Shown: positions 23,167-61,597 of the stretch, piece by piece
Layout of the letters: every line of letters starts with the position of its first letter
Numbering within the stretch: the first letter of the stretch is position 1
Source of the DNA: Ostreococcus lucimarinus
Taxonomy: Eukaryota
DNA length: 64,000 bases
Reading direction: 5' to 3' (one strand)
Assembly: GCA_000092065.1 (NCBI GenBank)
Contig: CP000582.1
Translations under genes and position numbers: made by a program
Notes under the pieces: generated by a model
The model's input: the letters and a program-made list of their open reading frames with translations, nothing else
Databases searched by the model: none
What the model was told of the DNA's origin: nothing

Positions 23167-23274
23167 CTTAAATCCACCCCCTTAGACCACTCGGGCATCC
23201 TGGCGCTTTTTCCTTCTTTTTCGTCTTTCTGCCAGGAATGGGGTTCGAACCCATGCGCACATTGTACAGTGGGT
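23167..23274 (-). tRNA. tRNA-Leu(UAA): Circularly permuted tRNA-Leu(UAA) gene. The 3' half (23230..23274) precedes the 5' half (23167..23204), with a 25-nt linker.
   Basis: On the minus strand the 3' half is A-CCCAC (positions 38-43), variable arm TGTACAATGTGCGC, T-arm ATGGG-TTCGAAC-CCCAT, acceptor 3' strand TCCTGGC, discriminator A. The linker is GAAAGACGAAAAAGAAGGAAAAAGC. The 5' half is GCCAGGA TG CCC-GAGTGGTCTAA-GGG G GTGGA TTTAAG, ending at position 37 with anticodon TAA. Acceptor strands pair 7/7. T-arm and acceptor closely resemble human tRNA-Leu-TAA. No 5' half lies upstream of the 3' half, and no T-arm lies downstream of the 5' half. One A-C mismatch sits at the 31-39 pair. Confidence 0.55.
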
Positions 23275-56754: not shown

Positions 56755-57051
56755 TCGTGACTCTCGTTTTCGTTCTGCGTGAACTCAGTCGCCAATAGTT
56801 TGCTTGTCGCACAGGTTTTACGTTTCTGACCACGCTTGTAATTACGTCTTCCTTCGATGAGCGCGTGCGCCACGAAATAATAGCGACAACGGCTGCGTAA
56901 AAACTCGTTTGCGACCGAGCGTGATAGTGCCGAAGCAGGGCGTAGCGCGTGCGTTCAGGCGCGCGACTTCTTATGACGAGTCAACTACGTGTTGTTCATA
57001 TAGCTACAATGTTCCACAGCTACGACGGTAGTTATTGTCGCTCCCACAGCA

Positions 57052-57145
57052 ATCAAATAGGCTCTGCCTGCGCAGGTTCGAATCCTGCCGTCCGCGCACT
57101 GAACAAATGCGGACGTGCCCGAGTGGTTAAGGGGTTTGACTCGAA
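57052..57145 (+). tRNA. tRNA-Ser(CGA): Circularly permuted tRNA-Ser(CGA) gene. The 3' half (57052..57096) precedes the 5' half (57109..57145), with a 12-nt linker.
   Basis: 3' half is A-TCAAA (positions 38-43), Ser-type variable arm TAGGC-TCT-GCCTGC, T-arm GCAGG-TTCGAAT-CCTGC, acceptor 3' strand CGTCCGC, discriminator G. Linker is CACTGAACAAAT. 5' half is GCGGACG TG CCC-GAGTGGTTAA-GGG G TTTGA CTCGAA, ending at position 37 with anticodon CGA. Acceptor strands pair 7/7, anticodon stem TTTGA/TCAAA pairs 5/5. Near-identical to human tRNA-Ser-CGA. The break lies at the canonical 37/38 intron site. Confidence 0.65.
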
Positions 57146-57407
57146 TGAATGAATAGAGGAAAACATCTGAATGTACGTGACATTCGGCGTCTGAACAGCA
57201 GCATGTATTGACAAGACAAACGCCGAATTAAATACGCTTCCGCAAGTGTGTTCGAAGCAAAACACGCGGTTACCCTTGTTTTTTTTGCACCCTTGATGGC
57301 GGCGCATCACACGCGTACAGACGCTTTCGGCCGTCCAACCCGGGTCGAATTGAAAGGAACGAAACATTCTTTCGATCGATCGAACCACGTAAGGAGCGCA
57401 TCCAACT

Positions 57408-58745
57408 ACATGGGCCAAACAGAAAAGGTTCGTTGAGTCGTATTTATAATTTTCGGCAATTGAACGCTAAGTAGGACCTGAAAATCGAACCCGAAAGTGC
57501 CAACCATACGCTCGATACGTCTGCATGGCCGCTTCTGCTAAAGAATTATGACAAGTTGATGGTACGTATCAATATTACGTGTTCTTTGCAAGTGTTCTTA
57601 GAGGGTATCTGTAGGTACGAACTGGTCACTACACTCCAATTCCGTGTGGAAGCTCTCCACTGCGACGACCACTGGCAGAGTATCTACGTTACGGGGTCAT
57701 CAATTTAGACAAGCCCGCCAATCCTTCTTCGCATGAGGTAGTTGCATGGTTGAAGCGCATCCTAAGGGTTGAAAAAACTGGACATAGTGGTACACTCGAC
57801 CCAAAAGTTACTGGTTCACTCATTGTCTGCATTGATCGTGCCACGCGCCTGGTAAAGTCTCAACAGGGTGCAGGCAAGGAGTACGTGTGCGTTTGTCGAT
57901 TGCATTCAGCGCCGACAGGTGGTAAGAGTGCTGTTGAACGCGGTATTGAAACTCTTACCGGCGCACTTTTTCAACGGCCACCGTTAATTTCAGCTGTCAA
58001 AAGACAGTTGCGCATTCGAACTATCTATGATAGTAAACTTCATGAGTTTGATGAGGCCAGGAATCTTGTTGTTTTCTGGGTATCATGTGAAGCAGGCACT
58101 TACGTTCGTACTTTATGTGTGCATCTTGGATTACTATTGGGAGTTGGTGGTCACATGCAAGAGTTACGCCGAGTTCGCTCTGGAATCTGCTCAGAGTCAA
58201 AGAACCTCGCGACCATGCACGACGTGCTAGATGCTATGTGGGTGTGTGACAACTTGAAAGATGATCATTACATTAGACGCGTTGTTATGCCGCTCGAGGT
58301 TTTGTTGACGAACTACAAGCGGGTTGTTGTGAAGGACTCCGCCATAAATGCAATTTGTTACGGTGCCAAGCTCATGATTCCTGGTTTATTAAGATATGAA
58401 GCTGGCATCGAGGTTGGGGATGAGTGCGTTCTGATGACAACGAAGGGCGAAGCTATCGCAATCGGCATAGCTGAAATGACAACTGCTGTTATGGCGACTT
58501 GCGACCATGGCAGCGTTGCTAAGGTCAAGCGAGTGGTAATGGAAAGAGACACTTATCCAAGACGTTGGGGTCTGGGTCCCAACGCGCAGAATAAGAAACA
58601 AACAAGCACCGATAAATCACAGAAATTAGGAGCGTCGATTATTGCATCCGACGGCGCAAATACGGGAAAAGAGATGATAAAGGAGAAGAAAGAGAAGAAA
58701 GAGAAGAAAGAGAAGAAAGAGAAGAAGAGAAAGCTGGACGAATAA
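57408..58745 (+). CDS. CBF5: H/ACA snoRNP pseudouridine synthase dyskerin/CBF5 (NAP57), three exons, with a lysine/glutamate-rich C-terminal repeat.
   Basis: MGQTEK|[29 protein letters not shown]|[97 protein letters not shown]...[20 protein letters not shown]...PUA domain...[20 protein letters not shown]. The C-terminus is (KEKKEK)n, encoded by a (gagaagaaa)n repeat. Confidence 0.85.
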
Positions 58746-60343: not shown

Positions 60344-61597
60344 ATGTCGGTTTGCGGAGAAAGGGAGCAACTTGGCTCCAACGCTGTAGAAAATGGAACA
60401 ATCTATAGACATCCATATTGCGCACGCTTTATCTCTTCCAAGCAAAGGTTTTGTGGATTGATGGCAAAAGCTGGGCATTCGTTCTGCGTTCACCACCTAC
60501 CCACAGAACAGTCGGAGTATATTTTTGCTTTCTGTCCAAAGTGCAAAACAAAAATTGCTAGTGATAGGGTAGACGCTCATTTAAGAAAGTGCCCCGTTCG
60601 CTTGAAAGAACAGCAGATTACAAATGAGATTTACTTTTGGAAAGATATCAACAGTGCCAAAGAGACGGTGGTAGACAAAACAGTAAGCTTGCGCGAACTC
60701 TCAGGCACGCAACTCGCTCTTCTGCTCGATAAAATTAGTCAAGCCGAACCAAAATGCTCGTCTTACTTGAGTAGACGTTCGAGCAGCTCACACGATGACG
60801 GCAAGACCATGCATAGTGTACACGTCCCACAGCGGACAAGTGAATCGGAAGCGCTACAGCGTGTCGCCATAGCAGAGGCCGTGCAAAAAGTTCGAGACGT
60901 CTTTGATCTTAGTACTAATAGTGCACTTGTTGAGCTTTGCTCCGGACGTGCGTATCTTTCAGCAGAGATCATGAAAACATGGCCGTTCTCAAAGCTATTA
61001 CTTGTCGACCGTCGTTCACATCGCTTCAAGGCGGATAGATTCCTTCGTCATCAAAGTGAGCTGAGGCGTTTGCTCATTGACATCAAGGATCTGGATTTGT
61101 ATAAAGTCTCTCTATTGAATAAATCGGAAGTGACCATCGTGGGTAAACACTTGTGCGGTGAAGCTACTGATTTCGCTTTAAAGTGTGCATTATCTTATCT
61201 GAAAGATAGTACAGTCACGTTCAGAGGATTGGCAATTGCTCCATGTTGTCACCACGCTTGTAAATGGTCTTCTTTCGTCAATACACCGTTTCTTGAAACA
61301 CTCGGCTTCAGCGAGACGGATTTTGGCTATCTCATACGTATGACGAGCTGGGCAACCACACTGTCTACTGGTTGCACGTCCCACGGATTCAGTTCTGATT
61401 TTGCGATTCACACTGAGGATATGGATGCGTGCCGAACCCTTAGTAGCAATGATAAACTACGCGTAGGGCGATACGTAAAGCTGATTCTCAACACAGCTCG
61501 TGTTCTATGGTGCAAAGAGCGCGGTTTCGACGTAAGCTTGGAGGAGTATACTAATGTTTGGGTAACGCCTGAGAATCAGCTAATACTTGTAAGATAG
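60344..61597 (+). CDS. TRM13: tRNA 2'-O-methyltransferase TRM13-like protein with N-terminal CHHC/CCCH zinc fingers.
   Basis: Zinc-finger blocks YRHPYCARFISSKQRFCGLMAKAGHSFCVHHL and FAFCPKCKTKIASDRVDAHLRKCP (zf-TRM13/U11-48K type). Methyltransferase core LVELCSGRAYLS...VGKHLCGEATDFALK...APCCHH. Confidence 0.65.
   Translation: MSVCGEREQLGSNAVENGTIYRHPYCARFISSKQRFCGLMAKAGHSFCVHHLPTEQSEYIFAFCPKCKTKIASDRVDAHLRKCPVRLKEQQITNEIYFWKDINSAKETVVDKTVSLRELSGTQLALLLDKISQAEPKCSSYLSRRSSSSHDDGKTMHSVHVPQRTSESEALQRVAIAEAVQKVRDVFDLSTNSALVELCSGRAYLSAEIMKTWPFSKLLLVDRRSHRFKADRFLRHQSELRRLLIDIKDLDLYKVSLLNKSEVTIVGKHLCGEATDFALKCALSYLKDSTVTFRGLAIAPCCHHACKWSSFVNTPFLETLGFSETDFGYLIRMTSWATTLSTGCTSHGFSSDFAIHTEDMDACRTLSSNDKLRVGRYVKLILNTARVLWCKERGFDVSLEEYTNVWVTPENQLILVR

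Follow-up and report, generated by a model that had tools for sequence, protein, structure and literature searches.

Circularly permuted tRNA genes are rare. They demonstrate that "back to front" storage of a gene can be mended at the RNA level via a circular intermediate. By 2014, 34 such genes had been catalogued from six algae and one archaeon (Soma 2014, PMC3978253). The known intervening sequences between their halves range from 1 to 74 bp. The permuted tRNAs of Cyanidioschyzon merolae (Soma et al. 2007) have the same architecture as the locus described here, with TATA-like elements upstream and a T-stretch downstream, and a pathway through a circular intermediate was proposed for them. 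Their junctions lie at positions 20/21, 37/38, 50/51 or 59/60, often with a strict bulge-helix-bulge (BHB) motif and additional introns, whereas the gene studied here has a 37/38 junction only, and that of an apparently relaxed kind.

Four permuted tRNA genes, Leu(TAA), Ser(CGA), Ser(TGA) and Cys(GCA), have been described in Ostreococcus lucimarinus (PMC3978253 Table 1, citing Maruyama et al. 2010). The Ser(CGA) entry of that table has a 37/38 junction, a 12-bp intervening sequence and no intron, while the Leu(TAA) entry has a 37/38 junction and an intervening sequence of 25 bp. Permuted genes of the same Ser(CGA) isoacceptor, likewise with a relaxed, hBH-type 37/38 junction, occur in O. tauri, Micromonas pusilla, Micromonas sp. 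RCC299 and the nucleomorph of Bigelowiella natans, but their linkers of 28, 19, 16 and 5 bp, respectively (PMC3978253), differ from the 12 nt found here. Seven permuted tRNAs are known from Bathycoccus (PMC3673656). Permuted genes are counted within minimal tRNA sets (PMC3978253, PMC3673656), and the published tRNA sets of Ostreococcus need them to read all codons (PMC3673656). As standard finders overlook permuted tRNAs, the genomes that carry them seem to lack tRNAs.

The locus found in the 64-kb stretch of O. lucimarinus DNA analysed here (the window) agrees with the published permuted Ser(CGA) gene (Maruyama et al. 2010, Mol Biol Evol 27:1070) in species, anticodon, 37/38 junction, 12-bp linker and the lack of an intron. 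No difference from that gene was found in this comparison, which was made by properties and not by coordinates, and the window locus is presumably the gene published in 2010, i.e., already known and rediscovered here. Its rediscovery from raw sequence indicates that the first-stage reading works; it brings no new biology, the gene having been published in 2010. The additions made by the present analysis are modest and comparative: conservation confined to the two halves and leader positions -3/-4, covariation of base 32 with leader base -3, and a relaxed junction motif.

Structure of the permuted tRNA-Ser(CGA) locus

The initial annotation had described a permuted tRNA-Ser(CGA) gene with the 3' half encoded upstream of the 5' half, and both its coordinates and its letters were verified (Table 1). 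On a single strand, the 3' half is followed by a 12-nt linker and then by the 5' half, and no intron is present. The 3' half starts with A38 (57052) and the 3' strand of the anticodon stem, TCAAA (57053-57057), and continues with TA, the variable arm AGGC-TCT-GCCT, GC, the T-arm GCAGG-TTCGAAT-CCTGC, the 3' strand of the acceptor stem CGTCCGC (57089-57095) and the discriminator G57096. The 5' half reads GCGGACG-TG-CCC-GAGTGGTTAA-GGG-G-TTTGA-CTCGAA, in which CTCGAA represents positions 32-37. Across the linker, the order of the locus is ...CGTCCGCG-CACTGAACAAAT-GCGGACG.... Since G73 is followed by CAC and not by CCA, the CCA end is not encoded at the locus.

[quoted passage not shown] The stems that span both halves pair perfectly, as had been claimed, with 7/7 pairs in the acceptor stem and 5/5 in the anticodon stem. 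The rejoined sequence carries U8, the GG in GAGTGGTTAAGG, U33 and TTCGAAT of the eukaryotic consensus. It had also been called almost identical to human tRNA-Ser-CGA; 66 of 82 positions (~80%) agree with a human sequence that was not taken from a database, and the two are thus similar only. Ordinary tandem tRNA genes are excluded, because neither half is complete and yet the acceptor strands pair 7/7 across the linker. The permuted order, the short linker, the canonical cloverleaf and the 37/38 junction are the structural features of type II (37/38). The assignment of the locus to the circularly permuted tRNA genes of this type is therefore supported, and the earlier interpretation holds.

Table 1. 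Features of the two permuted tRNA loci in the window (positions are those of the whole 64-kb stretch).
Feature	Position	Strand	Description
Permuted tRNA-Leu(TAA)	23167-23274	-	3' half 23274-23230; linker 25 nt 23229-23205; 5' half 23204-23167
TATA-like hexamer ATATAG	56998..57003	+	lies 54 nt ahead of the 3' half; candidate Pol III promoter element
Last four leader bases, AGCA	57048..57051	+	G57049 (-3) pairs with C32; A57048 (-4) pairs with U33
3' half of tRNA-Ser(CGA), positions 38-73	57052..57096	+	A38, anticodon-stem 3' strand, long variable arm, T-arm, acceptor 3' strand, G73
Linker, 12 nt, CACTGAACAAAT	57097..57108	+	separates the 3' half from the 5' half
5' half of tRNA-Ser(CGA), positions 1-37	57109..57145	+	acceptor 5' strand, U8, D-arm with G18G19, anticodon-stem 5' strand, loop 32-37, anticodon CGA
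Trailer to the first T-run, 133 nt	57146..57278	+	not conserved, unusually long
T8 run	57279..57286	+	first T≥4 run behind the 5' half; candidate terminator for Pol III

Detection, folding and chance controls

ARAGORN run in native order on the whole 64-kb window reported zero tRNAs, and the earlier statement that no canonically ordered tRNA-Ser is present thus holds for the window. The search against Rfam gave no match in the window at the gathering score; with permissive thresholds, the region 56950-57300 yielded a weak partial match of the 3' half to tRNA-Sec (14.5 bits) and otherwise noise. The rejoined 82-mer was called as tRNA-Ser(cga) by ARAGORN, and the circular mode of the program recovered the same tRNA across the join of the 94-mer. 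The expectation that a standard finder would miss this arrangement was therefore borne out, as the tRNA is reported only after rearrangement or in circular mode. A scan for bacterial-type promoters and terminators found nothing at the Ser locus, a scan that is irrelevant to a Pol III gene.

Folding of the rejoined sequence, a check proposed in the initial annotation, gave the class II cloverleaf as the unconstrained minimum free energy (MFE) structure (-31.5 kcal/mol, z = -2.2), with 4 of 200 shuffled sequences folding equally well. Among the 127,926 37-mers on both strands of the window, the real 5' half is alone in being fully complementary to both the acceptor strand (7/7) and the anticodon-stem strand (5/5) of the 3' half. 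With the 5' half shuffled, 3 of 500 reconstructions were still called by ARAGORN; with the 3' half shuffled, 0 of 500 were. The permuted-order pattern, defined as a T-loop followed after 28-58 nt by a Ser-type D-loop, matched the window once and none of 100 shuffles. In a brute-force junction trial at the Leu locus, ARAGORN accepted many wrong junctions, as the program is tolerant when acceptor, D and T arms are in position. For this reason, the case was rested on stem complementarity and on homologues, and not on ARAGORN alone.

Comparative analysis of permuted Ser loci

The search with the permuted-order pattern returned at least 120 metagenome loci and 17 contigs in a viral collection. The complementarity of the acceptor strands across the linker was bimodal: 60 of the 139 matches listed showed 7/7 pairs, and the remainder spread over 0-6 pairs, as is expected of ordinary tandem tRNA genes. 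Of the 7/7 set among the matches listed, 47 additionally have 5/5 pairs in the anticodon stem and yield full-length tRNAs when rejoined; these tRNAs are Ser(CGA) almost throughout, with a few Ser(AGA) and Ser(GCT). These 47 represent 26 distinct flank contexts (loci) and 25 distinct linkers of 7-32 nt, again among the matches listed. The linker is unconserved among related loci in both length and sequence.

In the 20 other independent Ser(CGA) loci, the mean identity to the window was 97% for the 3' half and 99% for the 5' half; the search pattern had fixed 23 of the 82 positions and left the remaining ones free. The flanks of the same 20 loci were identical to the window at the random level, with 22% in the leader (-30..-5) and 25% in the trailer (+1..+30). 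Likewise, BLASTN alignments between diverged loci and the window at this site start at 57048-57052 and stop at 57145-57146. Only the two halves and leader positions -3/-4 are under selection, and they are kept across many diverged relatives.

Pair counting was performed on 11 distinct rejoined sequences. All pairs were standard (100%), a value that is partly so by construction because the acceptor and anticodon stems had been selected for pairing, while the D, variable and T stems had not; both sides had changed in 16 of 24 pairs. None of 500 shuffles came close to this result, and neither did any slid register. The six metagenome contigs fetched through TRM13 belong to the same species, with 99.98% identity over 12-13 kb and an identical 94-nt core, and for this reason yielded no covariation. 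Synteny of relatives with the window was limited to L100 (identical), L112 (whose neighbouring Cbf5 gene is about 95% identical) and, weakly, L060. The remaining relatives have homologues of other genes of the window, but arranged differently.

The linker of loci L044, L047, L059 and L087, CACTGAACAAAA, is one base off that of the window, and their mature tRNA is identical; their flanks are unrelated, and there is no synteny. These loci may represent the opposite mating-type haplotype or a sister species.

The viral contigs L130 and L131 and the giant-virus MAG contigs L031, L136 and L142 show 7/7 acceptor pairing across very short linkers (TAACA, CTATAT) and were not cleanly rejoined under the simple model. 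They may be permuted prasinovirus tRNAs or mis-binned algal DNA; a permuted tRNA has been reported for the prasinovirus BpV1 (PMC3673656).

The 37/38 junction and the leader helix

The sequence of the window alone fits a junction at either 36/37 or 37/38, as leader base -1 is an A too. Among 21 Ser(CGA) loci, this base is T in 10 and C in 1, which excludes 36/37 and fixes the junction at 37/38. The break had been placed there in the initial annotation, with the 5' half ending in CTCGAA and the 3' half starting with A38, and this placement was confirmed by the homologues.

A canonical intron at 37/38 has its 3' splice site in a 3-nt bulge, and the third intron base ahead of that site is paired with base 32 (PMC3978253). 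The same elements are found at the window locus, where the leader and the trailer resemble the 3' and 5' ends of an intron: the leader ends in ...ACAGCA, base 32 pairs with base -3, and C57050, A57051 and A38 form a 3-nt bulge that contains the cleavage site. Unlike in the canonical case, the "intron" is open here and its ends are the ends of the transcript, with ligation circularising the RNA instead of joining linear exons.

Leader base -3 is G in all 21 independent Ser(CGA) loci, and base -4 is A or G in 20 of them. When all 26 permuted Ser loci are considered, bases 32 and -3 pair in 25, as C:G in 22 and as U:A in 2; the loci L109 and L119 have U32 together with A(-3), so that the 32:-3 pair covaries. 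As for the other pairs of the central helix, 34:-5 is formed in 4/26 and 35:-6 in 13/26 loci. The outer helix exceeds chance only in part across the 26 loci.

A BHB motif at the junction had been expected, and the flanks were checked for it. No strict hBHBh' motif formed at the Ser locus in free or body-constrained folding with flanks of 15-140 nt. In register, 2 of 4 pairs of the central helix (C32:G-3 and U33:A-4) and 1 of 4 pairs of the outer helix are present. What the junction has is a 2-bp helix and a 3-nt bulge next to the anticodon stem, and the expectation was thus not confirmed in its strict form: the junction appears to be a relaxed eukaryote-type motif (hBH), not a strict BHB. The junctions of green-algal permuted genes have been described as hBH (PMC3978253). 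A short candidate long-range helix between leader and trailer was also noted, at about 57036-57041 with about 57175-57180.

Transcription signals

Algal permuted tRNA genes have TATA-like or AT-rich elements upstream (PMC3978253). The internal A and B boxes are inverted in order in permuted genes, on account of which the review proposes TFIIIC-independent, TATA-dependent initiation (PMC3978253). Among the 26 independent permuted Ser loci, 12 have a TATA-like hexamer starting at -65..-30; in random 41-nt windows from the same loci, the mean was 2.3, and none of 200 replicates came to 12. In the related loci, the first run of T≥4 after the 5' half has a median position of +11 nt, versus about 117 nt from random positions on the same contigs. 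The linker contains no T4 run and no promoter-like signal.

The window locus is the extreme of the family in this respect, with its first T-run at +134, the longest distance among the 25 related loci with a T-run within 250 nt. The T8 run named in the initial annotation as a possible Pol III terminator does exist, but not at 57281-57288 as given there; its correct coordinates are those in Table 1. Given the distant T-run, either the assignment of the terminator or the length of the precursor is atypical at the window locus. The Ser precursor may be unusually long, or termination may differ here.

A second permuted gene, tRNA-Leu(TAA)

A generic scan for a T-arm followed by an acceptor strand with its complement within 90 nt gave two matches in the window, the Ser gene and a Leu(TAA) gene, versus one match in 20 shuffled windows. 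The Leu(TAA) locus on the minus strand has a Leu-type D-arm, the anticodon TAA and a TTTT run at 23150-23147. Its leader can form the pairs U32:A(-3), U33:A(-4) and U34.G(-5). There is an A31/C39 mismatch, and the MFE fold is not a cloverleaf. With this anticodon and its 25-nt linker, the locus matches the published Leu(TAA) gene of O. lucimarinus.

Proposed maturation and alternative explanations

We consider it highly probable that the locus represents the published type II (37/38) circularly permuted tRNA-Ser(CGA) gene of the O. lucimarinus nucleus, and that its product is matured by the pathway published for algae. According to the initial annotation, a ligated circle would be opened by RNase P and tRNase Z; this sequence of events agrees with the model published for permuted tRNAs of algae (PMC3978253) and is applied here by analogy. 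[quoted passage not shown]

By analogy, Pol III would make one linear precursor consisting of the leader, the 3' half, the linker, the 5' half and the trailer, with transcription probably directed by the TATA-like element upstream and ending at the T-run downstream. Within this precursor, the body would fold as a tRNA, with the linker closing the acceptor stem. The tRNA splicing endonuclease would then cut off leader and trailer at 37/38, like the two ends of a canonical intron, presumably with the mature domain and the C32:G(-3) anticodon-intron pair beside the 3-nt bulge as guides. A tRNA ligase would join A37 to A38 and so produce a circular RNA that retains the linker (CACUGAACAAAU). Finally, RNase P and tRNase Z would release the 12-nt linker, after which the tRNA would receive its CCA end.

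The same gene could in principle be matured in another order, with RNase P and tRNase Z cutting out the linker first and the paired halves then being ligated at 37/38, so that no circle is formed. The sequence does not fix the order of the steps, and a long trailer such as that of the window locus might delay the endonuclease step; the linker-retaining circles detected in both red and green algae (PMC3978253) argue against this order, and we regard it as very unlikely.

We also see very little probability in the view that the locus is a dead relic of a tandem tRNA-Ser duplication that has lost its outer halves and is neither transcribed nor matured. Tandem duplication is one origin proposed for permuted genes (PMC3978253 section 10), and the weak junction structure and the distant T-run of the window locus would fit a relic. 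Against it stand the 97-99% identity of the halves in the 20 other loci, next to flanks of 22-25% identity and linkers that vary in length and sequence, and the base G(-3), which is invariant in Ser(CGA) loci and covaries with base 32. Scars of a tandem duplication, in the form of vestigial tRNA similarity, were sought in the leader and the trailer against 1000 shuffles with a negative result, as 789 and 836 of the 1000 shuffles scored equally. In addition, the tRNA sets of Ostreococcus need permuted genes for all codons to be read (PMC3673656).

A split tRNA of the Nanoarchaeum equitans kind, whose halves would come from separate transcripts and be joined in trans, is extremely improbable. 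It is true that the halves are not contiguous in the DNA and that separate RNAs can be joined by the splicing machinery (PMC3978253). Unlike split tRNA genes of the Nanoarchaeum type, the halves of the window locus lie only 12 nt apart on one strand in permuted order, with a linker devoid of promoter-like and T-run signals; in the family, the T-run follows only the 5' half, and TATA-like elements lie only upstream of the 3' half. The algal linear precursors with both halves and the sequenced circles that retain the linker (PMC3978253) also speak against joining in trans.

A chance juxtaposition of tRNA-like fragments, for which one could cite only the permissiveness of ARAGORN once the acceptor, D and T arms are placed, has a negligible probability in view of the single fitting 37-mer, the shuffles without a pattern match, the rarely called shuffled reconstructions and the conservation across loci.

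Genomic setting

The long ORFs of the window are eukaryotic nuclear genes, encoding an MCM protein, Hsp70, a Cbf5/dyskerin-like TruB-PUA protein, TRM13 and WD40 proteins. The TRM13 ORF (60344-61597) is identical at 417 of 417 positions to the protein XP_001416220.1 of O. lucimarinus CCE9901. The G + C content of the window is 46-48% throughout, versus about 60% for Ostreococcus genomes. The candidate mating-type region is marked by a sharp GC drop of 9-17% and lies on the big outlier chromosome, which is chromosome 2 in O. lucimarinus (PMC8557840). The low GC of the window fits this region of chromosome 2. Two of the four permuted tRNA genes of O. lucimarinus, Ser(CGA) and Leu(TAA), lie 34 kb apart in the window.

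The metagenomic relatives with a nearly identical permuted Ser(CGA) gene (L007-L125, e.g., L024, L030, L044, L054 and L070) are also low in GC (0.36-0.47). They carry homologues of window genes located around 5.7-7.5, 26.8-29.9, 34, 43 and 53-56 kb, in a different order. This suggests that, whether between species or between mating-type haplotypes, the Ser(CGA) gene remains within a region that rearranges but does not recombine. A tentative and rather doubtful extension is that the Ser(CGA) and Leu(TAA) genes are long-term residents of the low-GC, non-recombining candidate mating-type region on the big outlier chromosome of the Mamiellales, in which gene order has been scrambled from one species or haplotype to another while the permuted gene and its 2-bp anticodon-leader helix have remained constant. 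If this were true, suppressed recombination might have favoured the origin or the persistence of permuted arrangements. The setting of permuted tRNA genes in a mating-type region may be absent from the literature.

The nearest genes downstream of the Ser locus encode the Cbf5/dyskerin-like pseudouridine synthase (57750-58745) and the tRNA 2'-O-methyltransferase TRM13. The position of these RNA-modification genes beside the Ser locus is probably a coincidence.
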